A DNA stretch of 29,896 nucleotides from a virus. Shown one piece after another: positions 9,185-29,896 of the stretch. Where the stretch lies: IMG/VR virus record IMGVR_UViG_3300031760_000017. One strand, given 5' to 3'. A program made the translations under genes and the position numbers. How positions within the stretch are numbered: the stretch's first letter is position 1; each line of letters starts with the position of its first letter. The notes below the pieces were generated by a model. The model was not told the DNA's origin and did not search any database. It saw only the letters and a program-made list of their open reading frames with translations.

Positions 9185-9188
9185 AAAA

Positions 9189-9232
9189 GAGGGTAGATGA
9201 TTTAATCATCTACCCTTTTATTTTTATTCATT
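9189..9232. terminator. Bidirectional rho-independent terminator between the convergent early (plus) and morphogenesis (minus) transcription units.
   Basis: Perfect 11-bp stem agggtagatga / tcatctaccct with a 5-nt loop. It is flanked by an A-tract on the left and tttatttttatt on the right. Confidence 0.8.
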
Positions 9233-9781: not shown

Positions 9782-9794
9782 TTTTTATCTCCTT

Positions 9795-11018: not shown

Positions 11019-11049
11019 TTTATATCACCTATATTTATTTTTTAAAAAA

Positions 11050-11078
11050 AATAAGGGGAATATTTATATTCCCCTTAT
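11050..11078 (-). terminator. Rho-independent terminator downstream of the 330-aa structural gene.
   Basis: Minus-strand hairpin aaggggaatat-aaat-attcccctt followed by a T-run. Confidence 0.65.
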
Positions 11079-11098
11079 TAAATTAAAGATTATTGTCA

Positions 11099-12091: not shown

Positions 12092-12146
12092 TTGGATTTC
12101 CTCCTTATATTTTGTACAAAATATTGATTGTCTTTATTTAGTTATT

Positions 12147-12881: not shown

Positions 12882-13482
12882 TTTTTGGAATCCATCCATG
12901 CGAACTTGGTAATACATCATCTGTCCCATGGATAGCTGAATATACCATAGTATAACCAGATAAAGTTTCATCTAAAATTAATTCATTGCAACCTGCAAAT
13001 TGAAAGGTGCCTATTCCAGATAAACGTGCTTTGTTAAGAATTCCATCAATATAGCCCGCAATTTTTAAAGGTCTAATTCTAAAATTTCCTAAATCCCAAT
13101 AATCAGTATGACAAAGAATATCAATATTAACATTACAATCTCTAAATTCAGGATTTCTCATATTTGGTCTAAAATTATCAAAACTAATTAATAAATAACT
13201 TTTAACCTATTCATGTTCAGGCATCTTTATTTTAGGCTCAAACTTTATATAACCTTGCTATCTTAATTTAGCTAAACTCATATCTTTAATAGCATTTTGA
13301 TAAACCGTACTTGTTTTATTATCTAAACAATCTTTTGTATTTATTACTAACAATCTTTTTAATTCATCACTATAAGGTTGACTAGTCACAAAAAGTCTTT
13401 TTAAAATTTCTTCTAAGTCTTTCTAGCATGATAAAAAAGATGAAGTAAAATCAACAGGTCTTAAAGCTAAATCTCTCTTCAT
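12874..13482 (-). CDS. Hypothetical protein (about 202 aa) with three in-frame TAGs, a possible neck or tail-completion protein.
   Basis: The RBS aaaaggag precedes it. The track ORF 12874..13161 is its C-terminal 95 aa. Confidence 0.5.
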
Positions 13483-13507
13483 ATATTTTATCTACTCCTT
13501 TTGTCTC

Positions 13508-14488
13508 TTATAAAGATATAATCTTTACATCTAATTTAATATCTTCTTGTCCTTCTACTCTATATATTAAAGTAAAAGACTTAAGTTTTCCTTCTATCTC
13601 TAATGGAAGAATCTTTAAAGAACTATTTAAATCCTTTTCTTCTTCTCCCCATAACAAATACCAATGTCCATTTTCAGCATTACATATCTCATAATATGCT
13701 TTACTATATTGTTGCACTTGAGTGGGACCATTAATATATGCGGCAGTTTCGTCTATAGGATCTTGTTGTCCAGTCTATTGATTTTCTTTAGCAGTTGCTT
13801 CCGCAATAGTATTCTCAAAGAATTCATCTAAAAATACTTGAATTATACCATCACCATAATAAGGATCAACACCTACCACTTGCCAAGTTTTCTCAACGTT
13901 TTTTCTTGGATCTAAAACTTTAATTGTTTTAAATCTTTCAAAATAATTATTTGTGTTTTCATCAGCTGTAATATACATAACTAATGAATAATTTATAGTG
14001 TTCCATTCAATTCCAGACTTTTGTGACCATTCAATAGAAGTTTCAACTGGACCTCTAATATAAACCCAATAACTTTTATCCCCTACTTGAACCTATTGAT
14101 CACATCTGCGGATTTCTGATCTAAAATAAGCATCTTCTTCAAGAAACTCTAAATAAACTAACCAATGTGTATTAGTCTATTTCCAAGTAAAAACGTTTCC
14201 TGGTCTCATATTAATATCAACTTCTCCATCAGAAGTTTTGCCTATTTTTGGCGCATTTAAACATATATCTCTATATGGAATTGAAATAATTTTATTATCA
14301 TAGGCGGGTTTATTTTTATCAGGGTTGATTAAACATCTAAACTATCTTCCATCTTCTAGAACTGCGGTTGCCGCCTGATAAGAATATAATAAAGCTTTTT
14401 TTAAACTTCTTAATTTGTCATTAATAAATCTTTGCTATTGATTCCCGCCATGATATTGCAATCTTTTATTTAATAATTCTAATGACAT
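13508..14488 (-). CDS. Hypothetical protein (about 326 aa) with five in-frame TAGs.
   Basis: The track ORFs 13508..13717 and 13775..13978 are in the same frame, separated only by TAG. Upstream continuity runs to the ATG at about 14488. Confidence 0.55.
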
Positions 14489-14799
14489 ATCTTTTCTTTC
14501 AATTCATTCATTAGTCCTAAACATTCAAAAATAGTTCTACGATAACATAGAAAATCATCCTCTTTAGTTAATGAATAAAGTCCTTCTAATTTATTTAATA
14601 ATGGGAAAAAAATTTCCGAATATTTTTCTCCTATTAGTCTTTTCATACCAATAAGTTCTTCTAAAATTGTTTCTAAAGGTTTTTGCCAATCTAAACCTTC
14701 TTCTCGACTAGGTAAAAGTTTATATGTTTGATTAATAAGGTTTTGCAATCTATTTGAAATTACATTATTCTAAATATTAATGTTATATTTTAATAACAT
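14470..14799 (-). CDS. Hypothetical protein (about 109 aa) with two in-frame TAGs.
   Basis: The track ORF 14479..14748 is its core. The start overlaps the upstream stop (ATAATG). Confidence 0.45.
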
Positions 14800-15338
14800 T
14801 ATTCTTCTCCCATTCTCTTTTTATAATTTTTTTCTTCTAAATTAACAGAAGAAAATTTAACAGGTTGCATAATTTTTCCAAAAGTAGATCGCATGACTCC
14901 CTATTCATCTGGTATTCTTCTTTTATATAAACGTTGTAAATGAAAACCTTCTCTTTCATAATCCTTTTTTAATTGAAGAAGTTTTTGCATATGATTTGCT
15001 TGTGAGGTAAATTTAAAATCTGTTCCGCTATATTTCATTCTAGTATTCTAAACACTAGCTAATTGCTGACTTAACCACTAAACAATCATATACACCGCTA
15101 AAATATTTATCTCTTCACGTGTCAACTCATTGTTAAAACAAAAATATTCTTCACCATTTTCTTCTAATTTTTGATAATCCCATAGATTAATTCTAGGAAA
15201 TTCAAATTTTTCAATAGCAGAAATTAATAATTCCTATAACATTCTATGAGTATCCTATAAAGTTAACTAAAGGTACATATCATCAGTAATTTTTGAAAGA
15301 AAAGAATCATATACTAATGAAAATGGAGTAGTATTCAT
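14799..15338 (-). CDS. Hypothetical protein (about 179 aa) with six in-frame TAGs, a candidate head-tail connector or adaptor.
   Basis: It runs continuously from the ATG (RBS aggggg) to TAA. It lies just downstream of the capsid module. Confidence 0.45.
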
Positions 15339-15354
15339 TTATACACCCCCTAAA

Positions 15355-15924
15355 TTAATTGTTTGGTTTATATCTTCTACCTGTTGGCGCGGCAGTCTGT
15401 TTAATCGGCGTAGCTCTTCTAGTTGTCTGTTTTGTAGCAGAATTTAAAATATTTTCTTCTCCGCTATCAAATTTAGTATTTTTAATTTCAATTGCTTTAC
15501 TAACATCAAATCCAAGTTTTTCTTGAATTGCATTTCTTTTGCTTACATCATTAAGAGGAAGATTAACTGCCATATCTTTAATATTTTCTAAAACGGATTC
15601 TGGAGCAAAATCTAAACAATCTAAAAATTGCTCTAAAGTACCAACTTTCATAAGCTCTTCTATATCTTTATTAGAATAATGATATTCTGGTTCTGGTTCT
15701 TTCCCGAAGAGTATCTTCGCAGCTTCTTCATCTTTAATTTCAAGATATTCACTTAATATAACCTTACCGCCAGGTAAAAAAGAAAGTCTTTCTAATTCAT
15801 TAAAACTTATCTATTTTTGTTCATGCGGATAAAAATCTCTATGAACTCTTAAATCTGGTACATCATATCCAACAGTGCCACCAAATTTATTAACAACTTT
15901 TATCATACTGTTTTTATCTATCAT
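15355..15924 (-). CDS. Hypothetical protein (about 189 aa) with one in-frame TAG.
   Basis: The track ORF 15355..15651 is its C-terminal 98 aa. The N-terminal continuation runs to the ATG at 15924 with a strong RBS aaaaggag. Confidence 0.5.
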
Positions 15925-15961
15925 ATTTTAAAAATCTCCTTTTATCTCCTATATAGTAGAA

Positions 15962-15992
15962 AAAAGGGAGAATTAAAAATTCTCCCTTATTA
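15962..15992 (-). terminator. Rho-independent terminator or attenuator immediately downstream of the major capsid gene.
   Basis: Hairpin gggagaat-ttttaa-ttctccc followed by a T-tract on the minus strand. Confidence 0.7.
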
Positions 15993-16111
15993 TATTTTTT
16001 GCACGTTTAGGCCTATTCCAGACTAATCTATATTAAAAACATCTTCCTCTGGAACACCCCATAAACTTGTGGGGTCATTATTCAATCTTTCCCAAGCTGA
16101 AATAGACCCAA

Positions 16112-17209
16112 TTAGTTTCCCCATGATGGGTCTTGGTCTAGTCCAGGCATAGCCTTAACTAAACTAACATTCTTATATACACAAATACCAGGATTAATCA
16201 TATAAGTAGCAACACCAAGTTTTTGATAAGTCTGGATTTCTGTTGACCAATCGCGGTTTTCAAAAGATTTTACTTGAGCAGCTCCTTCAAAAGCTACTTT
16301 AACAGGTTTCTCTGCTCCAGTAGGAATAATCCAAGCGTATGATGGATCAATTACTTTTTCACTATTAGTTTCATCTGTAAAAGACTGCGGAAGAATAATT
16401 ACTTGATGTCCTTTGTAAGTTCCTAAAGAACCATTATTCCAAATCTGTTCTTTCATTCCATCAGACATCGCATTCCAGTTTAATGAAGCCTGGTTGTTAG
16501 CAATAGTTGTAGGAGCCATTGTTGCAGCAAATTCAAATGTACAATAAATTGTACTCTTACCATAAACGTCTGCTGTCATAAGAAGCTGATCCATTGCCGC
16601 TTCATTAAATCCAGTCTGAGCTGTTTTATTTGTAGCAGGAATATTTAAAACTGTAGCTTCAAGAGCTTTTGCAATTTCACGATAAACTGCTTCATCCATT
16701 CCTTCAAGTACAAGACTATAATAATCATTCATAGTCATACGACCATCAAGAAGTTCTTCCCATTCAATACGAGAAGCGCCTCCATAAGCAGCTGTCGGTA
16801 CTTCAAGTGAATATCCATCAAGCTTGAAGACTTCATATCTACCTGCTAAACCAACTCTTGTTACAAACTGTTTAGCACGTTTCTTAGAAGCTTCACTGAT
16901 TCTTACTTTATAAACAGGTCTTGTTCCTTGCGCGAATGTACGAACATCAGCAAACTGTCCATAATTCTGAAGGACCTTTTGCGGAAGAACTTCTGTAAGA
17001 CCTACTTCAATAAGTGTATAAATAAGATTTTTATTTTCTCTAAAATCTTGAGGAGTCGCCCCAAGTTCGTTTAATTCTTTAATAAAAGTTTTATTCAGAG
17101 CTTCTGCTGAAAGCTTTTCTCCACCAAAAGAAAAAGCAGTAGAAGGATTTAATGATGCTTTCGCATTGGCTCTAGCTAATTCAATAAGCTGATCTCTTGT
17201 TAATGCCAT
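16112..17209 (-). CDS. Major capsid protein (HK97 fold, 365 aa). It is TAG-free.
   Basis: Track ORF with a strong RBS aaggagg. The length and sequence character are typical of phage major capsid protein. It is followed by a terminator and preceded by the scaffold-like and head genes. Confidence 0.8.
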   Translation of the reverse strand: MALTRDQLIELARANAKASLNPSTAFSFGGEKLSAEALNKTFIKELNELGATPQDFRENKNLIYTLIEVGLTEVLPQKVLQNYGQFADVRTFAQGTRPVYKVRISEASKKRAKQFVTRVGLAGRYEVFKLDGYSLEVPTAAYGGASRIEWEELLDGRMTMNDYYSLVLEGMDEAVYREIAKALEATVLNIPATNKTAQTGFNEAAMDQLLMTADVYGKSTIYCTFEFAATMAPTTIANNQASLNWNAMSDGMKEQIWNNGSLGTYKGHQVIILPQSFTDETNSEKVIDPSYAWIIPTGAEKPVKVAFEGAAQVKSFENRDWSTEIQTYQKLGVATYMINPGICVYKNVSLVKAMPGLDQDPSWGN

Positions 17210-17226
17210 TGTCTTTTTCCTCCTTA

Positions 17227-17775
17227 TTACTGAATTCTCTGAAGTTTAACACCAGGGGTTCCATCCGGCATTGTATAATGATCTGTTGCATTATCTTTTA
17301 CGACCTTAAAAATAGGACCATCACCTTCTCCGACAACAAGGAATCCATTTTCACCAACATGAAGTTTCTGTCCTTTGGTCGGGAAAGTTTGTGTAACTGC
17401 TACATTCGGACCTGTACCAGCCGCAAAAGTATTAGTAGTAAAAATATCACCAATATTAGTTTTAATTAAACGAGGATACATTTTTCCATCAGAAAAATCC
17501 TCGGGTTTATATACAAAATCTTTATGACTTTGAAGTCTTTCATCATAAAGTTTTTCTTCATTATAAACAAGCATAAATTCGCCATCTTCAGCAGTAAAAT
17601 TTACTTCACCAGCTGCATAATCATATTTAGCAAACTGACCCTGCTCAAGCTGTGTAATACTAGCAGCTGCAGGTAGTTGTGCATAAATCTGACCAGTTAC
17701 AATACCAGACAGATGATTAGGTTCAACTTGTCCATAACCAATTCTTTTAGTTAAGTCTCTTGCCATTTTTAGCAT
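17227..17775 (-). CDS. Head protein (182 aa, TAG-free), possibly a decoration or scaffold-associated protein.
   Basis: Track ORF with RBS aggagg. It sits between the scaffold-like gene and the capsid gene. Confidence 0.45.
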   Translation of the reverse strand: MLKMARDLTKRIGYGQVEPNHLSGIVTGQIYAQLPAAASITQLEQGQFAKYDYAAGEVNFTAEDGEFMLVYNEEKLYDERLQSHKDFVYKPEDFSDGKMYPRLIKTNIGDIFTTNTFAAGTGPNVAVTQTFPTKGQKLHVGENGFLVVGEGDGPIFKVVKDNATDHYTMPDGTPGVKLQRIQ

Positions 17776-17789
17776 CCTCCTAAAATTAA

Positions 17790-19133
17790 TTAACCAAGTT
17801 TCTCTTGTTCTTTAACAGCTTTCACCCATTCTGGCAGGCTGTCATTTTTATCACTATCTAATGTATATGTGATAGTTTTTTCTTCATTATTTTCTTCTTT
17901 CTCTTTTAAAGAAAAACTAACTTTTTTATCAAAACAAATAACTGAAAGTTTTGCTTTAATTTCTTCTAAAGTGTACTTCTACTTATTACTAATAACATCT
18001 GCTTTATCTTCTTCAGAAAGCATATAGAATTCAGCAATAAGTGCATCCTTTTTCTGATTATCAATTTCTCTTTTAAATTTCACGAGTTCTTGATATTGAT
18101 TTTGAAGAGTCTAATAAGAAGTTTTTAAAGCTTCAAGCTAATTTTCAATTAATTCATATTTTTTTGCTTTTTCCTTATCTTTATCATCATCTTCATCATC
18201 TTTATCTTCATCATCTGATGAATCTTCAGAAGAGTCTTCTTTATCTTCAGTTTCAGATTTGTCTTCTTTATCATCATCTTTTTTTACATAATCAGCAGGA
18301 ACAGAAGCATCTTCCATTTGATCAACCGTAGAAATTGTTGTATCAATTTCTTCTTCAACTTGAGTAAACTCAGTTACAGCAGTATCAGAAGTTTCATTCT
18401 CAACAACCACAGTTTTTTCAAGATTATCCATCTGTTGTCCTCCTCCGTCTAAGGCATTCTTTAAATCTTGCATCATACTAAAAAGTGTATGCCTAAAATT
18501 ATCGTCTAATGTAAATTTCAAACTTACATCTGGAGCCGTTACAGAAGCGCCTTCGAAGCAAGGCTCAACATCGTCTCCTAATATACAAATTTTTTGAATA
18601 ATTGCATCATTTATAATAAAGAAGTCTAATCCATTTTCATAATTTTTTTGCCAATTTCCTTTTAAGGTTTCTGGTTTAAATTCCATTGATTGCGGACGAC
18701 CTTCATTCACAGGTAAGCTGGATTCTGGAAATTGATCAGTCCAAAGATAACCTGTTGTCATAAGATATTTTCTTACAACAGTATTACCCATACCATCGCT
18801 ATCCTAAAAATCTTGAAACCAAACTTTTGCATCAGGAGATACAAAACCATAAGGAACAGTTTGACATTCGAATTTTACTCCTTCATCATCAATAATAACT
18901 TTTTCTCCATGATCTGTAAAATCTTCTTTACTATCTCTATAATAACCTACAATTGGCGCGCCTCGAAGACTTTTCCCAATTTCAACAGCAACCTATTTAG
19001 AAATAAAACTATGGTTTCTATTTGCGCCAAGATAAAATACTTTAATATCACATTTAGACATTAAAGGATTTATATCAAGAGGTTGAAGATTTAAAAATTC
19101 AGGAGAGCTTATCGTTGCAACTGATTGGTGCAT
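17790..19133 (-). CDS. Scaffolding / prohead-protease-like protein (about 447 aa) with five in-frame TAGs. It has a strongly acidic DE/S-rich linker and a coiled-coil C-terminus.
   Basis: The track ORF 18138..18791 is the middle segment. The frame continues upstream to the ATG at 19133 (RBS aaaggag) and downstream through TAGs to TAA at 17790. Its position is between portal and capsid. Confidence 0.55.
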
Positions 19134-19325
19134 AATAAAAATTCTCCTTTTTCATTTCCATATATAATAAAAATTTGAATAATTTTCTTAATAACTTTTG
19201 TCCAAAAAATTTTAATTCATACTTTCACGATTTTGAATTGTTTTTGTCGATTTCTAATCATCTGGTTTTTCAGGTCTTCCCGCACCCTATTTTGAATCTC
19301 CGCCAGTTTTATTACGATTTAAAAC

Positions 19326-20753
19326 CTATGCATTCATAGTACTAGACATTAATGGTGGAATAAAGACGTTAACTAAATCAAGAATATCATTTTCAAAATA
19401 AGCTGTTGCTAAAATAGCGCTTTGAGATTGTCCAAGAGCTATTTGTGGTAACATTTTAGAATAACCTAATTGAGTATGTTCTTTATATTGTTTAGCTAAA
19501 TCTTTATAATTATAAATAGTTGTAGGAAGAATTTGTGCCCTGTAATTAACCTTTTTTGGACTCTTATTATAAGGTATTAATAAAGTATTTAAGAAAGTTT
19601 CAAATTGTTGAATTAAGTTCCACATTGAAGCTTCATCATTTAAAATAGATTTTTCAAGAGCAATATTACCATCAGTATTAAATTGCATTTGTGAAACACC
19701 AGCTTCATTATAAACTGTACGTTCAACTTTTTCTAAATCATCTGTTGTTGTAGTGGTATGATTATCTGCCATATCCGCAACTTCAACATCAGCAAAAGTT
19801 GTTAAAACATCAATTCCAATTGCTTTAGACAACATTTGTACTGCATTATTATGAAGTTGCTGAGCTTCATCTACATCAAATACTAGATCACCATTTTTAT
19901 CAATAGGCATTTTCTGAATAATAATTTTTAATAATTGTTGTTGCATCTTGCGGCGATCAAGGTCTTGAGCTGCATCTAAATCAATTATAGCAGGGATAAC
20001 CGCCATAAATGGTGGAAAATCCTATCCATTTAAATTAAATTTTATAACAGAACCAATAGGAAGTAAATACCATCCAGACTCGTCTCCAGGAAAATCAGGT
20101 TTTAATTTTCCTTGTTTATATAGTCTATATCCTTTTTCAAACTCTTGCGGAAAAATCTTTAACATTCGAAAACGTTGCTCTGAATCTGTGAACATATCAT
20201 CAAAATATTTCATATTAAATTCAACAAGAGGCTGCCCACCTGCCGCAATATATCTGGATCTGCAATATCTTGGCGGCAACTATTGAACTATTACTGTTCC
20301 ATTCTTAGCTATTAAATAACCATAATAACAGCCATTTTTTACAACTTTTAAAGCTACATCACCAAAAAATTTTTTAGCTTCAAATTTATCTAAATAATTT
20401 AAAACTTGATTGAACCCCTCAAGAAGTTTATCTGGTTTCATAGAATCATTATAATATGGTGTTACTAACCAATCATATCTATACATATAAGCCATATAAC
20501 GACATAATCTTTGATAGATACCACTAATCTTATAAAAATAATTAGAAATATCTCTCATCTTATTTAAATCGCCATAATGAATAGCTCTTAAAACCTGCTC
20601 TTTATTTGCTAAATATGGATTAACTCTTTGTAAATCTCCTAGTTTTAAAATTGCATCAGATACAGTTTTTACTCCAACTCGAATTTTTGCAAAATCAACT
20701 GGTATATATCCAGTAGCCTAATTAGGAATTTGGTAATCTTCAGTTCCAATCAT
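19326..20753 (-). CDS. Portal protein (about 475 aa) with three in-frame TAGs.
   Basis: The track ORFs 19326..20006, 20022..20279 and 20280..20558 are collinear in one frame, separated only by TAG. Its size and position immediately after terminase fit a portal. Confidence 0.7.
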
Positions 20754-20815
20754 ATTAAAGCCTTTTTTCTTTATCTATGCCATTCGATTTATCAACTTTA
20801 GATACCTCTCCTTCT

Positions 20816-21178
20816 TTACCACCCATACGCCGCCTTAAGAATATAATCATAATTTACACGTGCCTAATCCCAATAAGGAATAATAACTAATTTAATATCA
20901 TGATCTCGACAATACTATCTTTTTCTCATATCATTATACTGTTGTTTTCTTAATCCATTATAACCACCAAATTTATCTTTAGCTTCATAATGTTGAATTC
21001 CTTGAAATTCAATTAAAAAATCAATATTATGCTAATCATCAAAAACAGCAAAATCAAATCTTAATGGACGTCCGGTATTACTTACTAAATCTGGAAAAGA
21101 GTATTCTTCTACGAACTCTAAACCAGAATCTTGTAATATTTCTTCTATTTTAATTTCTCCTCTGGATGCTCGCATATT
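20816..21178 (-). CDS. Free-standing PD-(D/E)XK (Vsr/DUF559-like) homing-endonuclease-like protein (about 120 aa) with three in-frame TAGs.
   Basis: The motif RFDFAVFDD-TAG-HNIDFLIEFQGIQHY resembles the D...(D/E)...IEYDG.QH core of the Vsr/DUF559 endonuclease family. It is inserted between the terminase and portal genes with its own RBS gaaggag. Confidence 0.55.
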
Positions 21179-21236
21179 TTTTCTCCTTCACTATATTATA
21201 TAAAAAAACCTTTTATAAAATTAATAACTTTCGACC

Positions 21237-22641
21237 TTAATTTTGTGTAAAAAATAAAAAGTCTGATATATTTCTTTTTCTTCTTTTCTTATTTAATTCT
21301 TCTTCATAACGTATATAATAAAGTCCATAAATAAAAGCAGAAAATTTATCTTTTTTAATACCTCTATTACTTTGCTTTAAAATAATATTAACGCCCTAAT
21401 TTTCTTCTACAAGATTTAACATTTGCTATTTTAAAATAGATGTTAAAATAAAAGGACGTAAATATTCATTCCTTTCATCCATATTCATATTTTGTCCTTG
21501 TTTAGTAGACATCAATTTTGTTTTTGCTAAACTTTCATCTATTAAAAATCTAATTTTGCCACTAAACATTTGGGTTTGAGCATAACTATACGCTTCTGTA
21601 TTAATTGGTGCGTTAGCTTTTATTATATATAATATATCACGCTATGTTTCTGGAGTTACAAATTTTTTATATTCTGGATATTCATCTGTATTAAAAACTC
21701 CAAAAGGTGGTAAATACTATCCATCCGCAGTTTCTTGAGCTTTTATTAAATAATCAATTAAACCAACACCTAATCCATTACCGTCAATAGCAATTCGTTT
21801 AGGTTTATACTTATAATATAAGTGTTTTATATGAATACATTGAGTCTCAAAATGCTAAGCATCATAAGTATAAATATTAACAAGAGTCTTATGAGCAGCG
21901 CCTTGCACTTGCGGCGTTACCTTAAAAACACAAATTTCAGTTGTACATCCTATACGCCCAACGTCCACTCCAAATACATAATATGCGGTTTTAGAAGATC
22001 TTCCGCTATACTCATACTATGGTTGCAATAAAACTCGATATTTATCAAACTTCTCAGAAGAAAAGAAAGCATTTTCTACATCTCCTGACCAAATACTCCG
22101 ATATTCTCTATTAAAAGACTAATCATTAAATGTTCCTTGTAATCTTAATTGTTCAACAAAATCTTCATCTAATAATCCAGAAACAACAGGAGTTTCATAA
22201 GTTCCACCCATTATCATATACTAATCTGGATCAAGAATAGAATTAATCAAGATCTATATCAGTTTGTGATATGCGAATGAATTTTTCCATCCTGCGGTGG
22301 TAATATAGATCTGTGACTTATTAACATTTTCTTCCTTGTGGCGGCTGCCATCTGAAAGACGTCTATCAACGTTAGTAGTAGGAATGATAACTTCATTTAA
22401 AATATCCCCATCAATAAGAACACACTATTCCATTAATCCACCTGTTCGACGTTGACCTCTAGAAGATTGTCTTGCCGCAAGAATATCAATAGTTGAGCCA
22501 TTCTTAAAAACGTATTTTACATTGTCTTTTGATTTTGTAGAAACACCTCTGTCCCAATTAATTTCATCATTTAAACCAGGAATAAGTCTACATATCTACT
22601 AGATTTTCGCGACTGTAATCGAGGCTGCTTGCTACTTACCA
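21237..22641 (-). CDS. Terminase large subunit, exon 2 (ATPase remainder plus nuclease domain). It has about 13 in-frame TAGs.
   Basis: It starts GK-TAG-QAASITVAKI (Walker A continuation). It includes FKNGSTIDILAARQSS (compare T4 gp17 LDNGSSIGAYASS). GGLME-TAG-CVLID may be Walker B. The nuclease motifs YYVFGVDVGRIGCTTEICVF and IAIDGNGLGVGLIDYL are present. Confidence 0.8.
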
Positions 22642-23567
22642 CCTGTGGTTACAAACAAATGTGAGTTAGGATATAAAATGCATCTTATCATTAATGCCAT
22701 CATTGACAAAAAAGACTTTGAATAAGCTACTTCTATTTAATATAATTCGTTAAATTATATTCGTATATACGCTCTATGTTCCCATAGAGATTAGACTATA
22801 TCATCATCCTTTAAACTTGGAAGTAAAGGAGCCTACCGCTTCGAGGAAACTTTTCCTCTACTCTCTTTCGAGATAGTCGTTGAACTTTTTATTTATAAGT
22901 AAAAGTTTTTCTTTCCGCTTTACCTAACGGAGTGTCTATATCTTTAGTAAGATAAGTCCAAGTTTCTCTTCTTCTTATTTTAGCTATAAAGCTTCTTACA
23001 GGAAAGCCAGTGATTTTAGAAATTTCTTTATCAGTATATTTATTACTTTTTAATAAATCTATTACCAACTTTGCATCTTTTTCAGTATAATGAGATAGAT
23101 TAGTTTTTTCTCCTTGTAAATATGAGAAATCAGTTAATCCAGTTTTTATGGCGTGGTGTATATTTTCTTGTGAAGTTACCCACTATAAATTATCTAATAC
23201 GTTATTCTCTTTATTACCATCTATATGATTTATTTGTAATTTTTCCATTCCTTCTATCGGTTTTAATAACATCATTAATAATCTATGATATTGAATAGAT
23301 GTTGTCCCCCCGCCTTTTTTCATTAAACTTACTCTCATATAACCATTATGATTTTTATTTATTTTAATATAATTTCCTGTATTGACATTACGAATTTTAC
23401 CCGTGTCATCAATAACATAACAGTCTTTAATATCAGGGTAGAGATCGCTAATTCTCTTCTCCATAAAAATCTCCTTATAAATAACTTAGCTGCTGATAAT
23501 CCGTTCTGGACTTCCCAGCAATTCAATAGGTTTCCTTTGAGAATATTACTATTCTCACCCCGCACTC
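22642..23567 (-). mobile_element. Group I intron in the terminase large subunit gene, just upstream of the Walker A lysine. The junctions are uncertain by a few tens of nt.
   Basis: Exon 1 reads ...FYQRVFLRIVMRHRYVYATFPRR and then breaks. The frame resumes about 0.9 kb downstream at (I)GK. The intron carries an HNH ORF with its own RBS. On the minus strand it has the same R/S-like elements as the polymerase intron: aacgactatc (plus 22872-22878) and gatatagtct (plus 22794-22803). A P9-like hairpin is present. A G precedes the proposed 3' splice site and a U ends exon 1. Confidence 0.7.
22889..23464 (-). CDS. HNH homing endonuclease (HNH_3 type, about 191 aa) inside the terminase intron. It has one in-frame TAG.
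   Basis: NHNGYMRVSL...QYHRLLMMLL...INHIDGNKENNVLDNL-TAG-WVTSQENIHHA matches the H-N-H motif (HxDGNxxNN...NLxW.T..EN). The RBS aaggagat is present. The track ORF 23183..23464 is the N-terminal part up to the TAG. Confidence 0.8.
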
Positions 23568-23818
23568 ATTCTACGGGGGAATGTTGCATATACGTATCTA
23601 TGTCTCATAACTATCCGCAAAAAAACTCTTTGATAAAAAAGAAATTCAAAAGTACTATCTTTACCTTTAATAAAATCAACAAAAATATCTGGATACTATC
23701 TAAAATAAGCAATAAGATCTCTTAATTGATCCATATCTTGTAAAAGTCTTTCTTCTGATATTCCTTGCTTTCGATATTCTCTTTCAGAAGTTATTTGTAG
23801 TAATTCTTTTAACTTCAT
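23568..23818 (-). CDS. Terminase large subunit, exon 1 (N-terminal about 83 aa). It has one in-frame TAG.
   Basis: The ATG overlaps the upstream TGA stop (ATGA). The sequence runs MKLKELLQITSERE...FYQRVFLRIVMRHRYVYATFPRR and leads into the Walker A motif. Confidence 0.7.
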
Positions 23819-25155
23819 GATGTTTGAACCCTCCGATTTAAATATTCTTTTTCAATATCTTCATCATTTAAACTATCATCATGAGCTTTCATATGATTTA
23901 AAGAATTTTTATAATTTACAAAATCCTCATCCTCAAGTTCAACTGTATCTAAACCTTTTGCTCTAGCATCTTTTTTATCTTTTTTCATTTCTTCTGAAAT
24001 CCGCTTATCTTGAAGATATTTTTCAATTTCTTGAGCTAGTGATTTATCTTCATAAATAAGATTTCTATTATATTCTTTTAGATCTCTAATAATCTAATCA
24101 ACTATATCTTGCGGCTAATTACATTTATATCTAGGAATTGAACCACTATGACTCTAAACAAAATCTACAATAGCAGAAGCAGAATCTATACCTATACCAT
24201 TACCATCCTTATTTTGAGCTTCTGTAAATTTTGCAGATTTCATCATAGTATCATAAACACGCGATAATTTTTGATAAGAATCAATATCTCCACTATCAAT
24301 AGCCTAATCCATCTTTAAAGAAGTCTTACAAATTTTCTTTAAAGTATCAATACGCGCCGCACCTTGAATATCAAAAGAATTCATAAATTCATTATATAAC
24401 TGCTCAAGAGCAACCCATTGACTAGGTCTATAAAGACGCCCCCACTTAATTGCAAGATACATTTTATCTTCTTGATCCAAATCCGCACCAGGATCAGTAA
24501 TTTCACTCTAAGGTATAAATAACTGTTCTTGAAATGGATTTTTTACCTGACTTAAAGCTTCAGCATAGGATTGCGGCTATCCATGAACTTCAATTTTATC
24601 TCCAACATGTATACCAGTAATATTGTTTCCCCATTGTTGAGGTAATTCTTTATTTTGAGTCTCAGTACTTACTAAAGTTTGATATTCAGATAATGAAATT
24701 TTTCCTTCACTTAATTTAACTTTAAGCTCAGCTTCATACCTAGCTTTTTCTTCCGCTTCAACCTTTTCTTTTGCGGCTCTCTCTTCATCCATCTATTTTT
24801 GAATTTTTTCAGTATCTTTATAACCATATTTATTCCACTGTTTAAGTTTCATCTTAGCAAGATACTTACCAATAACAGACATTCCATTCATTTTATAAGG
24901 ATCTTTTGCAAAAGCCTTATCTCTTAATACATTCCATTCGACAGGAATATAAGGAACATCCATTTTTTCAAGAATCCATTCAAAAGTATGAGAATCAAAA
25001 TTATCAATATGCGCGGTTATACATGCTTTACAAATTTCGCATTTGCTTCCATCTTTATAACTATAAAAATTTATTTGACCAAATTTCTTTCCGCATCTTT
25101 CACACGTACATTTGCCATTCTAATCTGGCTATTGTCCCATTATTTTCTTTGCCAT
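23815..25155 (-). CDS. Hypothetical protein (about 446 aa) with nine in-frame TAGs. It has an N-terminal CxxC...CxxC zinc ribbon (CTCERCGK...CEICKAC) and a central Glu/Lys-rich coiled coil.
   Basis: It is continuous from the ATG at 25155 (RBS ggagaa) to TGA at 23815. The track ORF 24577..24792 is an internal fragment. It is the second gene of the operon, directly upstream of terminase, so it may be a small-terminase or DNA-recognition analogue. Confidence 0.5.
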
Positions 25156-25198
25156 AAAATTCTCCTTTCTATTATTATAGAAAAAATATTATATAGAA

Positions 25199-26335
25199 TT
25201 AAGTGGTTTTGACCTGTATTTTATTTTTTTTATTTCTACAACATTTGCACATACTATATAAACCATCTTTCGCAGTTTTATTTTTTGTAAAAAAATAGGG
25301 ATGTGCAAGTTTTATTTCATGACACCTAGAGCATCTTTTCCACTTACCTTTTTCTTCAACGGTATAGTGCCAGATTATCCAATCTTCTTTTGCTCTTTCT
25401 GAAATTATTTTTGGGATTTTTTTGCGCCAAACGACAGAGAGGTATTCAATAGAATAAGTAATATTATATTTCTATTTTATTTGCGCGGAAATGTCTTTAT
25501 TTTGTAAACCATCAATTTTATATTTTACAATATCATATAAAATAGGATAATCTTCTTTTAATGATTTATCTATAAGATTATCAAAATCCTCCATTAAAAA
25601 CCACCAATCTCCATCAAAATTTCCCCAAGCCTATTCTTTGATTTTGGAATAATTACATAATAAACAACTTACATGATGAGGGTCAAATAGTGATATTAAA
25701 CAATTGCTTATCGGATTTCCGCTATCATCGACTTTTATTTTTTCACTTAAATTAATTTGATTTACATTCTTAGTTAATTTCATGGAGGTAATAGGAGGTT
25801 TAAATGAGCTTTTTAAGATATATTGATCTTGTCTCATTTCTATTAATTGTTTAGTTAATAGATATTTTTTTCTTCCAGTTGCTACCTTTTGTTGAATTTC
25901 AATTTTCTTTATTTCTTCTCTTAATTCTTTTAATCCTGGTATTGTTTCAATATCGTCTTCAGTAATCTATATTTTTGGAACTAATAGAATATTTTTATCC
26001 CCGCCAGTCATAAAATTATAAATACCATCTTCGCCATTTTCTAATTTTAAAACCAACCCCTAATAAGAAGTTTCTCTCTTATTAACAGTTACCATTCTAT
26101 TGTCTGTTAATACAGTCTTTTCTTTTTTGCTTTCAGGAGTCTCAACTAAATATCTAGTTAATTCTTCTAAATAATATGGAGTCAATTTATCTGCCGCAAC
26201 GCTATTTACAATCTCATGCACTAATCTATTTCGCTATTGTATATCTGTAATTGTATAATCTAGTTTAGCGTAAGGTCTTTTACTATTGTTGTTTTCCAAT
26301 AGAGGAGTATCTTTTATAACATCTTTTTGTTCCAT
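25199..26335 (-). CDS. Hypothetical protein (about 378 aa) with five in-frame TAGs, the first gene of the morphogenesis operon. It has a C-terminal zinc-ribbon-like DNA-binding module (CSRCHEIK...F...DGLYSMCKCC).
   Basis: The RBS aaaggag is 7 nt upstream of the ATG at 26335. The track ORF 25631..25837 is an internal fragment. The frame is continuous to TAA at 25199. Confidence 0.5.
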
Positions 26336-26366
26336 AAATACTCCTTTTTATTAATTCTATACTTAT

Positions 26367-26395
26367 ATTATAGCAAAAAATTTTTTCTCTGTCAA
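26367..26395 (-). promoter_or_regulatory. Consensus sigma-70/sigma-A promoter driving the minus-strand morphogenesis operon.
   Basis: On the minus strand it reads TTGACA, then a 17-nt spacer, then TATAAT. The -35 element is at plus 26390-26395 and the -10 element at plus 26367-26372. It lies about 30 nt upstream of the RBS of the first gene. Confidence 0.7.
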
Positions 26396-26417
26396 TCTAG
26401 AATAAAGGATTATTTTA

Positions 26418-26446
26418 TTGATTTTTAAAAAAATATATTATATAAT
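26418..26446 (+). promoter_or_regulatory. Sigma-70-like promoter for the rightward genes, divergent from the morphogenesis promoter.
   Basis: TTGATT (26418-26423), then a 17-nt spacer, then TATAAT (26441-26446). It is about 30 nt upstream of the ATG at 26476, which has the RBS aaaggag. Confidence 0.6.
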
Positions 26447-26475
26447 AATTATATAATAAAAAGGAGATAATAAAA

Positions 26476-26676
26476 ATGATTACAGAAAAAACTATTAAAA
26501 AGATGAGTAATATTTTTTGTGAAGAAACTGATTGTGATTATTGTCCTTTTACTGAAATGTGCACCCCAATTTGGGAGCTTTCAAAAGACTGGATGAATGA
26601 TGGAACAAGAGCAATATGGAAGAGCGGATTTCAGAAATTTTTTGAAAAGAAACTGGAAGAGGAGCTGGAAGAATGA
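26476..26676 (+). CDS. Hypothetical small protein (66 aa) with a CxxC...C motif.
   Basis: Track ORF with a strong RBS. Its stop overlaps the next start. Confidence 0.5.
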   Translation: MITEKTIKKMSNIFCEETDCDYCPFTEMCTPIWELSKDWMNDGTRAIWKSGFQKFFEKKLEEELEE

Positions 26677-27101
26677 TTTTAGCTGTAACAGGACATCGTC
26701 CGCAACGATTAAAAGGACAAGAGCAATTGATAAAAGAATGGGCGGTCGAGTAGCTTACTCGCCTTCAGCCAGCACTGGTTATTGACGGAATGGCACAGGG
26801 AACTGATCAAATTATAGCAACTGCCGCGAAAGAATTGGGGATTCATGTTCTTTGTTGTTATCCATTTCCTAAGAAATATTATCATCCAGTTGAACAATGG
26901 ATTATGGAAGACAACCCATTTGTCTTTGTTTCTAAAGAATATTCAAAAAAAGCATATTATGTTAGAGACTGTTGGATGGTAGATCATGCAGATGCTCTTT
27001 TATGTGTTTGGGATGGAATAGGTAGCGGAGGAACTTTTTTAACTAGGAATTACGCTCTTAAAAAGAATAAACAAATTATTGATTATAAAGGTTTAAGGTG
27101 A
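26673..27101 (+). CDS. YoqJ/DUF1273-like protein (SLOG-superfamily Rossmann fold, about 142 aa). It has one in-frame TAG.
   Basis: The N-terminal MILAVTGHRPQRL and the IDGMAQGTDQIIATAA motif are characteristic of the DUF1273 (SPbeta YoqJ) family. The ATG overlaps the upstream TGA. The track shows only the fragment 26790..27101 after the TAG. Confidence 0.6.
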
Positions 27102-27106
27102 TAAAA

Positions 27107-27283
27107 ATGAAAGTCAAAGCAAATTATAATATTACCCTTGATGAGGGAAGTTTTATTAAAGGTAAAGAATATAATTATAAAATAACTAATGAAGGAAAAT
27201 ATCTTGTGACAACAGAAGAAGGAATGGAACAGGATTTAAATTTTGCAGAATTTGATATATTCTTTACACCTTTGAAAAATTAA
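27107..27283 (+). CDS. Hypothetical small protein (about 58 aa).
   Basis: Track ORF 27098..27283. The ATG at 27107 has the better RBS (aaggtga). Confidence 0.4.
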   Translation: MKVKANYNITLDEGSFIKGKEYNYKITNEGKYLVTTEEGMEQDLNFAEFDIFFTPLKN

Positions 27284-27348
27284 AAAATTTATAATATAAT
27301 ATACTTGTAAATGATAAATAAATAAAAATATTAAAGATTAAAGAGAAA

Positions 27349-27399
27349 AGGAGGCAGCAGGTATGAGACGGTCATATACCTGCAAAACCGCATGGTAAC
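27349..27399 (+). promoter_or_regulatory. Leader region containing an RBS, an 11-codon uORF (MRRSYTCKTAW) and a hairpin. The uORF stop overlaps the start of the downstream gene (ATGGTAA).
   Basis: The RBS aaggagg is 8 nt before the ATG at 27364. An inverted repeat caggtat..atacctg brackets the uORF start. The TAA of the uORF overlaps the ATG at 27392, which has no RBS of its own. This is a termination-reinitiation or attenuation-like arrangement. Confidence 0.4.
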
Positions 27400-27781
27400 A
27401 ACAGAATTTATTGTAAATGAAGAGAAGCGTACTGTAGTTTGTATTATTACAACAGTAGATGACATGGCAGATAGACTTGCTAAGTATGGTCTTGCGGATG
27501 ACCAGTATGATGACATTGAAGATATTCGTGTTTATAAGGGAATTGCAAAATGCTGCCCGCAGGATACTTGGGATGAGTCTTTTGGAAAGAAGCTTGCCGA
27601 GTGGAGAGCTGCGCGGAAGCGTCAGGTGGATATTAATAATGAAATTTCTGATTATATTGTTAGTATGTATGAAAGACTTGATACACTTGATATTTATGGT
27701 AGACTAAAGAACCCAACCCCGCCTAAGGGATATTGGTATGAAGATCCTGAAGTTGAAGCCGCAAATAAAGGACTAGTGTAA
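27392..27781 (+). CDS. Hypothetical protein (129 aa). It has elevated GC content and is TAG-free.
   Basis: Track ORF. Its codon usage (gcg, ccg, cag, ctg) differs from the rest of the window. Confidence 0.5.
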   Translation: MVTTEFIVNEEKRTVVCIITTVDDMADRLAKYGLADDQYDDIEDIRVYKGIAKCCPQDTWDESFGKKLAEWRAARKRQVDINNEISDYIVSMYERLDTLDIYGRLKNPTPPKGYWYEDPEVEAANKGLV

Positions 27782-28182
27782 TGGAAGAGAGATTAACAAG
27801 AGAAACAGCATTAAATCTTCATAGACAGATGTGGGCAGATATGCTTATAAAATTAGGTAATAACCCTGATGGTCTAGCTCGCACAATGTTTAAGCTGGAT
27901 TGGATTCGAACTCATGGCTATAAGGATGTTGAATGTAATTGTTTTTTGTGCGAATATGATTACCAACAGCGGAGAAGGGGAGACGAGTGGTGTGACTTCT
28001 GTCCAATTGACTGGTCTTCTCTTTCTGCGGGAGAAGAGGATGATTTGCTTTCTCTTCCTGGGGAAGAAGTGGCAAGTTGCGGAGATAGATATATTTATGG
28101 TAACCCTGATTCTTATGAAAGTATATGGAGATCCGCACCAATTAGTGAAATTTTAAATTTACCTGAAAAAGAAGGAGTATAA
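27781..28182 (+). CDS. Cys-rich putative zinc-binding protein (133 aa).
   Basis: Track ORF with motifs CNCFLCEYD, WCDFCPIDW and SCGDRY. Its start overlaps the upstream stop (TAATG). Confidence 0.5.
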   Translation: MEERLTRETALNLHRQMWADMLIKLGNNPDGLARTMFKLDWIRTHGYKDVECNCFLCEYDYQQRRRGDEWCDFCPIDWSSLSAGEEDDLLSLPGEEVASCGDRYIYGNPDSYESIWRSAPISEILNLPEKEGV

Positions 28183-28184
28183 AA

Positions 28185-28511
28185 ATGATTGTAAACCCGT
28201 GGATTTTTTATTTAGCTGGAATATGTGATAATTTAGGATTTGTTGCTATACTTGCTGTTCTTTTTATTTGTATTTATCTGATAATTAGAATAGCGGGTTA
28301 TTACGCTGATGAAATGCCCCATTGGTGGGATAAAAATTTTAAAATTGCGACAATTGTTGGACTTTTACTTTTAGCCCTTGCGGTAGCTATTCCTTCACAG
28401 AACACTTGTTATAAAATGATTATTGCATCACAGGTCACCGCAGAAAATTTGGATAAGGTAGAAGACACTATTGAAAGAATTGCCGATTATGTGGCGGATA
28501 AGGATGAATAA
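28185..28511 (+). CDS. Membrane protein (108 aa) with two predicted TM helices. It is holin-like in size and topology.
   Basis: Track ORF with hydrophobic segments FYLAGICDNLGFVAILAVLFICIYLII and IATIVGLLLLALAVAI, and a charged C-terminus. Confidence 0.5.
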   Translation: MIVNPWIFYLAGICDNLGFVAILAVLFICIYLIIRIAGYYADEMPHWWDKNFKIATIVGLLLLALAVAIPSQNTCYKMIIASQVTAENLDKVEDTIERIADYVADKDE

Positions 28512-28513
28512 AA

Positions 28514-28666
28514 ATGGAGATATTTTTACTGTTACTTTGGATTTTTGTTGGAGCAATTAATATTGCGGGGGCTGCCGCCAATGGCGGGGTAGTTTCTATT
28601 ACTAGTTATATTTGTTGCTGGATTGTGTTAATTGTATTTTTAACTATAAGATGTTTTGATAATTAA
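28514..28666 (+). CDS. Small membrane protein (50 aa).
   Basis: ATG 3 nt after the upstream stop. MEIFLLLLWIFVGAINIAGAAANGGVVSITSYICCWIVLIVFLTI is one or two hydrophobic helices. Confidence 0.4.
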   Translation: MEIFLLLLWIFVGAINIAGAAANGGVVSITSYICCWIVLIVFLTIRCFDN

Positions 28667-28681
28667 GAGGAGTTTTAAAAT

Positions 28682-28843
28682 ATGAATGAAAAAAATGTTG
28701 TAATTAGAGAAGACGAAAAGAATGTTGTTTGGTGTCCGACGTGCGGTGCGGCGTTTTATAAGGATTCCCCCAATTGGGGTAGAGAAACTTGCGGGCATTG
28801 CGGAACGGTGCTGAATTGGGAAAATGTGGAAAAAGAGGATTAA
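28682..28843 (+). CDS. Small zinc-ribbon protein (53 aa).
   Basis: RBS aagaggag. The CPTCG and CGHCG pairs are 20 residues apart. Confidence 0.45.
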   Translation: MNEKNVVIREDEKNVVWCPTCGAAFYKDSPNWGRETCGHCGTVLNWENVEKED

Positions 28844-28846
28844 GTC

Positions 28847-29209
28847 ATGTATTATGGAAATAAAAGTTCACATTGGATAGCGGCGCTGGCTCTGTTTTTT
28901 TACGCTATTTTGATAGTAGGACTTATTGCTTTCTCACTTTGGAGACCTATTGATAAAGTTTCTAATCTACGAGAAGAAACAATTGTAGTTACGGATAAAA
29001 TGGTAAAAGATGACGTTTATTTGATTTATTCGGAAGATACTACGTATGAAATTACTGATAGTTGGCTGTATCCAAGATTTAATTCGTCTGATTTATATGG
29101 AAAAATTCAGGTCGGAGAGAGTTACAAGATAACAGTTGGCGGAAGCAGAATTCCATTTTTGAGTTGGTATCCAAATATATATAGAGCGGATAAGATAAAG
29201 AAGGGATGA
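28847..29209 (+). CDS. Membrane-anchored protein (120 aa) with an N-terminal TM helix and a beta-rich C-terminal domain.
   Basis: Track ORF with hydrophobic segment WIAALALFFYAILIVGLIAFSLW. The stop is TGA. Confidence 0.5.
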   Translation: MYYGNKSSHWIAALALFFYAILIVGLIAFSLWRPIDKVSNLREETIVVTDKMVKDDVYLIYSEDTTYEITDSWLYPRFNSSDLYGKIQVGESYKITVGGSRIPFLSWYPNIYRADKIKKG

Positions 29210-29211
29210 TA

Positions 29212-29246
29212 AGAAGGGATGATAAATCATCCCTTCTTTTTTTGAT
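29212..29246 (+). terminator. Rho-independent terminator ending the rightward operon.
   Basis: Stem gaagggatga / tcatcccttc with loop taaa, followed by tttttttg. Confidence 0.75.
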
Positions 29247-29252
29247 TTGTCG

Positions 29253-29361
29253 TTTTTTGGTTTTGGAGAGGGAAATATCGCTTTTTGGATTTGAAAATTG
29301 ATTTGGAGAGGGAAATGTATGTCCGTTTTTTAGTTTTGAAAATTGATTTGGAGAGGGAAAT
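29253..29361. repeat. Tandem direct repeats. There are three copies of ttggagagggaaat. The last two are embedded in an exact 30-bp repeat tttgaaaattgatttggagagggaaatgt (29287-29316 and 29332-29361).
   Basis: The repeats are read directly from the sequence. The spacers are 17-25 nt. Confidence 0.8.
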
Positions 29362-29599
29362 GTGGAGCACATACCCTTTTATCATTTTTTAAAAAAATTT
29401 TTCCCGAAATATACCCCCCACATAACATTCAGGGAGTGGCGCTAGCTGAGAAAAATGTATGAGCACGCTGGTAGAAAACACGGCCCTAAAAATAGCGCAA
29501 CAAAATAATAGCTGGGGATATGAATAAAGATAACATCAAAGCATTGTCTTCTCATTTGATCTCTTCTCTATTTGAAGTAGATAATTCGTCGTCGCGAGA

Positions 29600-29896
29600 G
29601 CGTCCGCTGGAAAGACGCTTGAGCGACGCTTTTGCACTTTAACGCGTTAAAGCGTTAAAACTTTAGCGCGTTAAAGCGTAACACTGCACCACGTTAAAGT
29701 CCTAAAACTCTGCCACTTCACCGCGCTAAAGTGGTAACGCGTTAATACTTTAACACGGTGAAGTGGTAACGCGTTAATTTCAGCAAGTTGCACAAAAGTC
29801 TATCCAGCTTTTTGTGCAATCTGACGAAAATATTTTTTGTGCAAACCGCACAAAAACGAGCATGAGCTTTTGTGCAAAATGACGAAAATTATTTTT
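29600..29896. repeat. GC-richer region dense in short palindromes and repeats. It includes the perfect 16-bp palindrome ctttaacgcgttaaag (about 29638-29653) and gtggtaacgcgttaat x2. It also includes ttttgtgcaa(a)tgacgaaaat x2, a copy in inverted orientation, and the palindrome ttttgtgc-N5-gcacaaaa.
   Basis: Read directly from the sequence. No ORF is plausible here. It is a candidate origin, terminus or regulator-binding array. Confidence 0.6.

Follow-up and report, generated by a model that had tools for sequence, protein, structure and literature searches.

What purpose is served by a dense cluster of repeats and palindromes that lies behind the last gene of a phage sequence? The question is raised by IMG/VR record IMGVR_UViG_3300031760_000017 (29,896 nucleotides, 30% G+C; this whole stretch of DNA is referred to as the window), where a preliminary description had placed such a cluster at positions 29253-29896 and had proposed an origin, a terminus or an operator cluster. 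We divided the region into a first part with direct repeats (29251-29419), a second part with a hairpin and a palindrome array (29588-29778) and a third part with short operator-like sites (29779-29896 and beyond). Of the three proposals, the operator cluster is favoured for 29590-29896, a terminus is possible but weakly indicated and for 29253-29420 only, and an origin has no support apart from three direct repeats beside an A/T run. The operator reading is the best supported because of the dyad symmetry of the sites, their regular spacing, their position between a hairpin and the promoters and their recurrence ahead of four gene modules in the overlapping contig L014. In our estimate there is an even chance that 29588-29896 holds a set of protein-binding sites on double-stranded DNA, insulated from upstream transcription, through which early promoters are controlled.

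The window ends inside the region, and the repeats might have marked an assembly end or a junction with unrelated DNA. An exact-protein look-up returned four contigs, namely L014, L015 and two short Logan contigs that end within the repeats. L014 (33-kb ENA contig) was 99.98% identical to window positions 18847-29896 and then continued for 9.3 kb more, and L015 (JGI contig), with 99.4% identity to the window, also ran past the window end. Since both contigs cross this point uninterrupted, the window end is neither a genome end nor an assembly-end junction. The window in fact stops within a non-coding gap of ~1.2 kb (L014 10364-11574), which divides the end of a + strand operon from the block of early genes and of which the repeats occupy the first half. 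Across this non-coding stretch the relatives L003 (139.8-kb contig) and L001 (144-kb contig) showed 83% and 70% identity, respectively. The repeats were kept in both, and the same ordered architecture was found in many other contigs; conservation in related genomes, on which the preliminary description had made its proposal depend, was thus observed. Whether the gap was read in the standard code or with read-through of TAG or of TGA, no open reading frame (ORF) of more than 90 codons appeared, and the small frames differ between relatives. A hidden protein-coding gene was therefore rejected. Comparison of 29200-29896 with cultured-phage DNA revealed no similarity, and a literature search with the motif strings returned only unrelated primers and the like.

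The second part begins with a GC-rich hairpin followed by a T run (29588-29633, + strand, -23 kcal/mol), which forms the promoter-distal edge of the array and has the look of a terminator or insulator. In all 15 relatives and modules compared, the same position holds a hairpin (-14 to -33 kcal/mol) with unrelated stem sequences, so that the structure is conserved and the sequence is not. The array itself, termed the 'B' array (29634-29778, + strand), consists of five 16-bp units, each fitting CTTYANCG|CGNTRAAG, at 29637, 29661, 29684, 29716 and 29748 (spacing 24, 23, 32 and 32) and two copies of GTGGTAACGCGTTAAT at 29731 and 29763. A perfect palindrome, CTTTAACGCGTTAAAG, is located at 29637-29652. 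The half-sites CTTYANCG and CGNTRAAG occurred 8 times in 29630-29780 versus twice in the other 29.7 kb of the window, and TAACGCGTTA, searched with at most one mismatch, gave 5 matches (0.4 expected), all in 29640-29776. The GC-rich block, the perfect palindrome, the degenerate half-sites and the two following repeat copies, which had all been reported from first inspection, were thereby recovered.

The B units follow the dyad-symmetric consensus caCTTCACCGCGTTAAAGtg and measure ~20-26 bp. Indeed, the dyad symmetry extends past the search pattern, with T(-4)/A(21), C(-1)/G(18) and A(0)/T(17), giving the extended consensus T-nn-CA-CTTCACCGCGTTAAAG-TG-nn-A. Spacing between units peaked at 23 bp (18 cases), followed by 32 (11), 24 (5), 48 (5) and 56 bp (4). 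Left half-sites read CTTCACCG or CTTTAACG and right half-sites CGTTAAAG, CGCTAAAG or CGGTGAAG; symmetric units, as against hybrid units, include CTTCACCGCGGTGAAG and the palindrome CTTTAACGCGTTAAAG. Unit positions 4 and 13 assorted independently (Fisher p = 0.78), and in a hairpin the combination seen most often would place C against A as a mismatch. Independent assortment of the half-sites speaks for a dimer that reads double-stranded DNA and against a hairpin of RNA or single-stranded DNA. The idea that the units act as hairpins was rejected, as the positions within a unit do not covary. We also rejected an array of clustered regularly interspaced short palindromic repeats (CRISPR), because the units are degenerate and are separated by unit-like 8-mers, with a spacing that varies from 23 to 56 bp.

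Not only the units but also their order is shared. A GC hairpin is followed by three units 23-24 bp apart, the motif AAAGTCC, further units and then a promoter; this order holds in the window, L003, L001, L051, L178, L301 and most of the L014 modules. In L094 the same cassette is present in reversed orientation ahead of a leftward promoter. Next to the B array and GC hairpin of L094 lies a ~600-bp T/G/C-rich low-complexity segment (TGTGTGTATG-type, L094 3300-3900) without an obvious gene. B arrays and a similar early-region architecture were also seen in L178 (CANQQR010000001.1, 139.6 kb) and L152 (JAFVUY010000119.1, 158 kb); both are binned as metagenome-assembled genomes (MAGs) of Bacilli and are probably related large phages, not bacterial DNA.

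Downstream of the B array, the third part carries a series of 17-bp inverted repeats with a 7-3-7 layout. On the + strand these sites are located at 29779 (TTCAGCA-AGT-TGCACAA), 29812 (TTGTGCA-ATC-TGACGAA), 29837 (TTGTGCA-AAC-CGCACAA) and 29870 (TTGTGCA-AAA-TGACGAA), their centres being 33, 25 and 33 bp apart, and one further site is cut at the window end. The ttttgtgcaa-type repeats of the preliminary description, with their inverted copy and N5 palindrome, were all present: TTTTGTGCAA has 4 exact copies, one of them inverted, all in 29788-29877, and the palindrome TTTTGTGC-AAACC-GCACAAAA occupies 29835-29855. These TTTTGTGCAA repeats resolve into the 7-3-7 sites, in which two half-site types are combined as TTGTGCA-N3-TGCACAA, TTGTGCA-N3-TGACGAA or TTCGTCA-N3-TGACGAA. 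The half-site TGACGAA/TTCGTCA is found twice in the region versus once elsewhere in the window; L014 contains 13 copies, 11 of which lie inside non-coding arrays.

In L014 the series of 7-3-7 sites extends as far as the first early promoter (TTGCGT-17-TATAAT), whose spacer contains a TTTGTGCGG half-site. Nine more sites precede the promoter of the second module, the last one overlapping the -35 region of that promoter; the centre of TTGTGCAAACTGCACAA is ~40 bp upstream of the putative module-2 transcription start, a position read from the sequence. In L259, L263, L284, L292 and L335, all of which are without B arrays, a related site, TTGTRCAAnTTGCACAA, is located past the hairpin and ahead of the first promoter. 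B arrays and operators thus occur in subsets of the loci only, which makes them lineage-specific insertions into a constant framework of 17-mer (described below), hairpin and early promoters.

The genes behind these arrays form an early block. Downstream of the gap, L014 carries a run of + strand genes encoding proteins of 34-209 amino acids, with hairpin/promoter cassettes between them whose predicted sigma-70-type promoters read TTGACA-17-TAnAAT. Each of four early modules, of three or four genes, is preceded by one of the four B arrays of L014. Arrays were located 100-500 bp upstream of predicted sigma-70-type promoters in L014, L003, L001, L051, L054 and L094. Three of the L014 modules are clearly paralogous three-gene modules, arranged in tandem at 13162-16448 with ~1.6 kb each (B array, operators, promoter and three small genes). 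Protein identity between modules is ~60%, indicating an old duplication since which the units have been maintained. The cassettes at L014 12200-12235, 13390-13430, 13765-13800, 15010-15050 and 15380-15415 resemble bidirectional terminators, with TTGACA in or near the loop and the -10 element directly after it. Combined terminator/promoter cassettes of this kind bring to mind the PeSL elements of phage T4.

On these grounds we propose the following mechanism. Transcription arriving from upstream would be halted twice, at the terminator of the preceding gene and again at the GC-rich hairpin. Behind this insulation lie the dyad-symmetric sites, B units of ~20-26 bp set 23, 24 or 32 bp apart and then the 17-bp 7-3-7 operators, onto which a dimeric, probably oligomerising, DNA-binding protein would load. 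The resulting nucleoprotein complex would reach and overlap the first early promoters and set their activity. As these promoters already come close to consensus, the likeliest effect would be to shut them off or to silence them conditionally. The sequence comparisons show the anatomy of the region, its conserved and ordered layout, its place relative to terminators and promoters and the lack of hairpin covariation inside units; we infer from them that protein binds here, what kind of protein it may be and that repression is favoured over activation.

Several observations weigh against this proposal. Dyad sites of ~14-26 bp and multiple copies at or overlapping promoters, both typical of operator clusters, were found, and a cognate regulator was not. 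Among 18 neighbouring small proteins (ten from L014, eight upstream) none had a Pfam match to a helix-turn-helix, ribbon-helix-helix or HU-type domain, and ten further window ORFs were likewise without a DNA-binding domain; these 28 proteins come from the ~40 kb inspected of a ~140-kb genome. A zinc-ribbon ORF, put forward earlier as a candidate binding protein, was not supported, as the 53-amino-acid protein gave only sub-threshold, generic zinc-ribbon matches. B arrays and operators are each present in subsets of the wider family only, so that neither is essential, and near-consensus early promoters may need no regulator at all. The four arrays of L014 could in part result from segmental duplication and not from a separate need for each copy. 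Finally, B units in the terminal repeats of phi29-like phages, described below, fit a function in replication or at genome ends equally well.

What, then, is the role of the first part, which precedes the hairpin? The region follows an intrinsic terminator of the last + strand gene (28847-29209), annotated at 29211-29246 (+ strand) with a stem-loop at 29211-29238, which has a 12-bp stem and a 4-nucleotide loop, and a T run behind it. The last 13 bases of this gene (AAGAAGGGATGAT, stop codon included) are duplicated in tandem (window 29198-29238), the second copy being the left arm of the terminator. The direct 'A' repeats follow at 29251-29363 (+ strand), where TTTGGAGAGGGAAAT is found three times, at 29262, 29302 and 29347, with a spacing of 40 and 45 bp. 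The three direct repeats behind the terminator had been noticed before; their core, TTGGAGAGGGAAAT, has exactly three copies (29263, 29303 and 29348) and no further match in the window with up to 2 mismatches, and shuffled sequences contained 0.3 copies on average, with none of 100 shuffles reaching three. The last two copies lie in a longer repeat of 40 nucleotides (29279-29318 and 29324-29363, 93% identity), the units of which start with CG(C/T)TTTTT and end with TTTGAAAATTGATTTGGAGAGGGAAATGT. An exact repeat around these two copies, given as 30 bp in the preliminary description, does exist and is 29 bp long (29290-29318 and 29335-29363). All repeat units that this description had listed were found where it placed them, without a further match in the 30-kb window.

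A conserved box, GGAGCACATACCC, and an A/T run (T6 A7 T5) come next (29364-29402, + strand), as recognised by comparison of relatives, and lead to the 17-mer CCCGAAATATACCCCCC at 29403-29419 (+ strand). This 17-mer is present in a single copy in the window, even when 3 mismatches are allowed, and in each related locus. Its invariance is set by the design of the search, since relatives were collected by scanning viral and metagenome collections for it; the scans yielded ~35 loci with the same upstream context on ~25 distinct contigs. The 17-mer always follows an A/T run, and the first early promoter lies 150-1100 nucleotides downstream; past it, near-consensus sigma-70-type promoters recur every few hundred bases in loci with enough sequence. 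Its single-copy occurrence consistently just ahead of the early promoters marks the first part as a landmark for the start of the early block. A variable spacer (29420-29587, + strand) separates the 17-mer from the GC hairpin; it is kept among close relatives only and contains neither an ORF nor an Rfam match or consensus RNA structure. The first part probably has a role different from that of the arrays, either as a packaging or terminus signal or as an origin; the start of a small RNA may be considered as well.

A replication origin might be read from the three direct repeats beside an 18-bp A/T run, which are single-copy in the sequences covered and vary in sequence by lineage. In relatives, one to three A repeats occupy the same position with a different sequence, for example GATTTGGAGAGAG in L262 and L278, GGTCTCTGGGATTG in L309 and GGACTTAGTGAGAG in L335, and judged by this pattern they appear to behave like iterons. 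According to this view, the A repeats would be the iterons, the A/T run the unwinding element and the 17-mer with the arrays auxiliary sites. The B units of phi29-like phages would fit as well, as they adjoin protein-primed origins within the terminal repeat, and both host and phage proteins bind near the origins of phi29 (PMC2731898). However, no DnaA boxes were found in the gap at up to one mismatch and no initiator gene was recognised among the neighbouring proteins. The A/T run is short, iterons would be expected at a more even spacing than 40 and 45 bp, and the B arrays recur four times in one genome. Cumulative GC skew, which had been suggested as a check, gave no support either: the minimum, at ~25-26 kb, lies ~3 kb upstream of the region and follows gene orientation. 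Altogether, we regard an origin as distinctly unlikely.

Alternatively, the region could mark the leading genome end with entry control, as in T5 or at the left end of T7. The element made up of A repeats, GCACATACCC and 17-mer would then hold a packaging signal or the left end itself, and the arrays, on the first DNA to enter the cell, would hold or dock it, which is compatible with an operator function of the third part. This alternative draws on the single-copy, invariant 17-mer that is always found just ahead of the early block, and on the lineage-specific direct repeats by an A/T run, which resemble sites of a terminase small subunit. The same B units also lie 55-125 nucleotides from both physical ends of phi29-like phages. 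Furthermore, the independent metagenome contigs L327 and L319 both begin at the nucleotide homologous to 29367, and the first bases of L327, CGATCT, match the tail of an Illumina adapter. However, only 2 of the 6 contig starts within 100 nucleotides upstream coincide at 29367, with a chance probability of ~0.15. The other four are scattered through the A repeats, as expected for breaks in repeats, and the coincidence is therefore only a weak hint of a physical end. All long contigs read through the site, a terminal repeat could not be shown, no terminase gene was identified nearby and DnaA-box pairs of the T5 type are absent. A genome end at this site is accordingly possible but doubtful.

A gene for a non-coding RNA could likewise start near the 17-mer; its end would be the GC hairpin, or an AT-rich terminator in relatives, and the C-rich 17-mer would serve as a functional 5' segment. 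A terminator-like hairpin is indeed found 40-230 nucleotides past the 17-mer in every relative, and a subgroup has the short motifs CTGACGAG and GGCCCTAAAAA in common. If the assemblies include RNA-derived reads, a transcription start could account equally well for the contig starts at -36. These points are opposed by the absence of a recognisable promoter upstream of the first part and by the lack of conservation of the putative RNA body within the family. An Rfam search of 29250-29640 (E ≤ 1) returned only chance-level matches to miRNA and sRNA families around the terminator, far below gathering scores, and RNAalifold found 0 consensus pairs around the 17-mer across 9 relatives. We consider such a gene very unlikely. 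A hammerhead-like reading of CTGACGAG...GAAA was rejected, as it had no Rfam support. Sigma-70, SigD-like, sporulation-sigma-like and SPO1-middle-like readings of the first part, judged by eye against consensus sequences, did not fit both sequence and spacing.

The B unit is not restricted to large phages. Many contigs of ~16.5 kb were matched by a scan for CTTCACCGCGYTAAAG, with inverted copies close to the two ends. Their genes include those for a packaging protein of the terminase family, a fragment of PolB, a major head protein and a tail protein; in the capsid protein, identity to small podophages of Enterococcus, Clostridium, Hungatella and Bacillus was 27-33%. The inverted terminal repeat of this phi29-like family measures ~100-125 bp and consists of ~50 terminal bases and two or three B units 23 bp apart, followed by a promoter. 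Besides L054 (1-130), L045 and L026, about 70 other loci (IMGVR_UViG_3300045988_*) have B units in their terminal repeats. No similarity between the proteins of the two groups was detected: the phi29-like proteins had no tblastn match at E < 1e-4 in the other array-bearing loci, and ORFs of the window and L014 had no blastp match at E < 1e-5 in L054 and L026. The same tblastn comparison (E < 1e-4) revealed no binding protein common to the phi29-like phages and the other array loci. A shared motif without shared proteins can be explained by a host factor that both groups use, by exchange of a cassette or by a binding protein that escaped detection.

A scan of bacterial genomes (596-Gb collection) for the 16-mer gave, among the matches listed, mostly chance single hits. 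In a Bacillota MAG (JBMOLK010000289.1, L214 3110-3143) a CRISPR array of 49 repeats (GTTTTTATAGTACCTATAAGGAATTGAAAC) has the spacer ACGCAGTGGCACCGCTTCACCGCGCTAAAGTGCT, which is a B unit with array-like flanks. From its sequence, this spacer is a possible link between the array-bearing phages and a host; none of the loci compared contained an exact protospacer for it. At two intergenic sites of Bacillus sp. CGMCC 1.16607, purN-purH and smc-ftsY (L199 3380-3480 and L172 810-900), the 16-mer and GGGGGTCAGTCCCCC hairpins follow each other in turn with a 39-nucleotide period. These repeats look like an element of the repetitive extragenic palindromic (REP) type that shares the motif. Taken together, the spacer in a Bacillota MAG and the intergenic 16-mers of a Bacillus fit Bacillota hosts.

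The REP-like elements also raise the question of whether the phage arrays are selfish or neutral DNA, comparable to REP elements or miniature inverted-repeat transposable elements, or even an assembly artefact, in either case without function for the phage. The shared 16-mer agrees with the first possibility, and the several short contigs that break within the repeats agree with an artefact. Against selfish DNA stand the order, orientation and hairpin-to-promoter position kept across divergent phages and the maintenance of the units since an old duplication, and an artefact is at odds with independent assemblies that agree at 99.4-100% identity. This explanation seems barely credible to us.

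A further proposal, which we put forward as no better than a doubtful conjecture, is that the B array is a portable cis-element through which unrelated phages read one DNA-binding protein, likeliest a host factor of uncultured Bacillota, and which together with the 17-mer would form an exchangeable module for entry and early expression. The array would then be used much like Spo0A by phi29, as a new type of site at genome ends or origins and at early promoters.

How does the region compare with known systems? The p6 protein of phi29 has a periodicity of ~24 bp. The p6/Spo0A system of phi29 is similar in that protein sites lie ~50-130 bp from the ends and at early promoters, coupling replication initiation to early-promoter repression, and the B units take this origin-proximal position in the phi29-like family. 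In contrast, p6 reads DNA bendability, whereas B units are sequence-specific palindromes, and no p6 homologue was found here. Pairs of 0A boxes are tandem, head to tail. They consist of TGTCGAA heptamers with 3 bp between them, and in phi29 such host-factor sites serve to sense the state of the host (PMC2731898). In the present region TGACGAA occurs in inverted 7-3-7 pairs and is often partnered by TTGTGCA. Because the pairs are inverted and not tandem, we do not class the 7-3-7 sites as Spo0A sites, although TGACGAA resembles TGTCGAA.

With the injection-stop-signal region in the left terminal repeat of T5 the locus shares a non-coding stretch of more than 1 kb in a large lytic phage, beside the earliest-expressed genes (bioRxiv 10.1101/866236). 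T5 differs in having paired DnaA boxes, set in conserved inverted repeats, a mapped terminal repeat and a two-step injection, while no DnaA boxes were found here; its host is Escherichia coli, as opposed to Bacillota. At the left end of T7, short repeats containing TAAAG form arrays that separate the genome end from early promoters A1-A3 and may be comparable; these are 7-8-mers of unknown function, compared with dyads of ~20-26 bp here. In SPO1, the phage architectural protein TF1 prefers sites lying across strong host-type promoters of the early, terminal region, and no HU-type counterpart gene was found in the 40 kb examined. The first part is reminiscent of lambda-type ori or cos regions, with two or three direct repeats, an A/T run and an invariant core in single copy, and differs from them in its repeat spacing of 40 and 45 bp and in that no adjacent initiator or terminase gene was identified. 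By its layout, the region seems to belong with known control elements of phage early regions, those defining features of each analogue that could be looked for being absent.

The source phage is a ~140-kb TAG-recoding phage of the gut or rumen, to which phAss-1 is a distant relative. The window has genes for a DnaE-type polymerase, an anaerobic ribonucleotide reductase-like protein and structural proteins; no transfer RNA or transfer-messenger RNA genes were found in it. The major capsid protein is 52-56% identical to those of phAss-1 and an unannotated phage record from human faeces, and 34% identical to those of ~140-kb Enterococcus phages. The DnaE-like polymerase is divided into two ORFs in different frames (window 3-704 and 1702-4356), with ~1 kb without a long standard-code ORF between them; an intron, an intein, an inserted element or recoding could account for this split. 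Late genes on the - strand are broken under the standard code (window 9000-26000; L014 366-7489). In L014, late and structural genes each contain 1-13 in-frame TAG codons and end in TAA or TGA. Among the 20 small + strand genes downstream, a single one has an in-frame TAG, 4 codons before its called end. The presence of TAG in late genes and its near absence from these small genes indicate that TAG reassignment is confined to the late genes. TAG recoding has been described for phAss-1 and matches the pattern of the window; the words "repeat", "promoter" and "non-coding" do not occur in that paper (PMC10607447).

The region is a conserved landmark for the boundary at which early genes independent of TAG read-through meet the remainder of the genome. 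To our knowledge, phAss-1-type phages have been seen in metagenomes only. The three defined motifs offer a means of locating the beginning of the early region in related contigs, of fishing for binding proteins and of seeking hosts. If the array is a site for a host factor, two unrelated phage groups would be tied to a common host. It would then be the second case, after phi29 and Spo0A, of lytic phages that wire a host regulator into their genome ends and early promoters.

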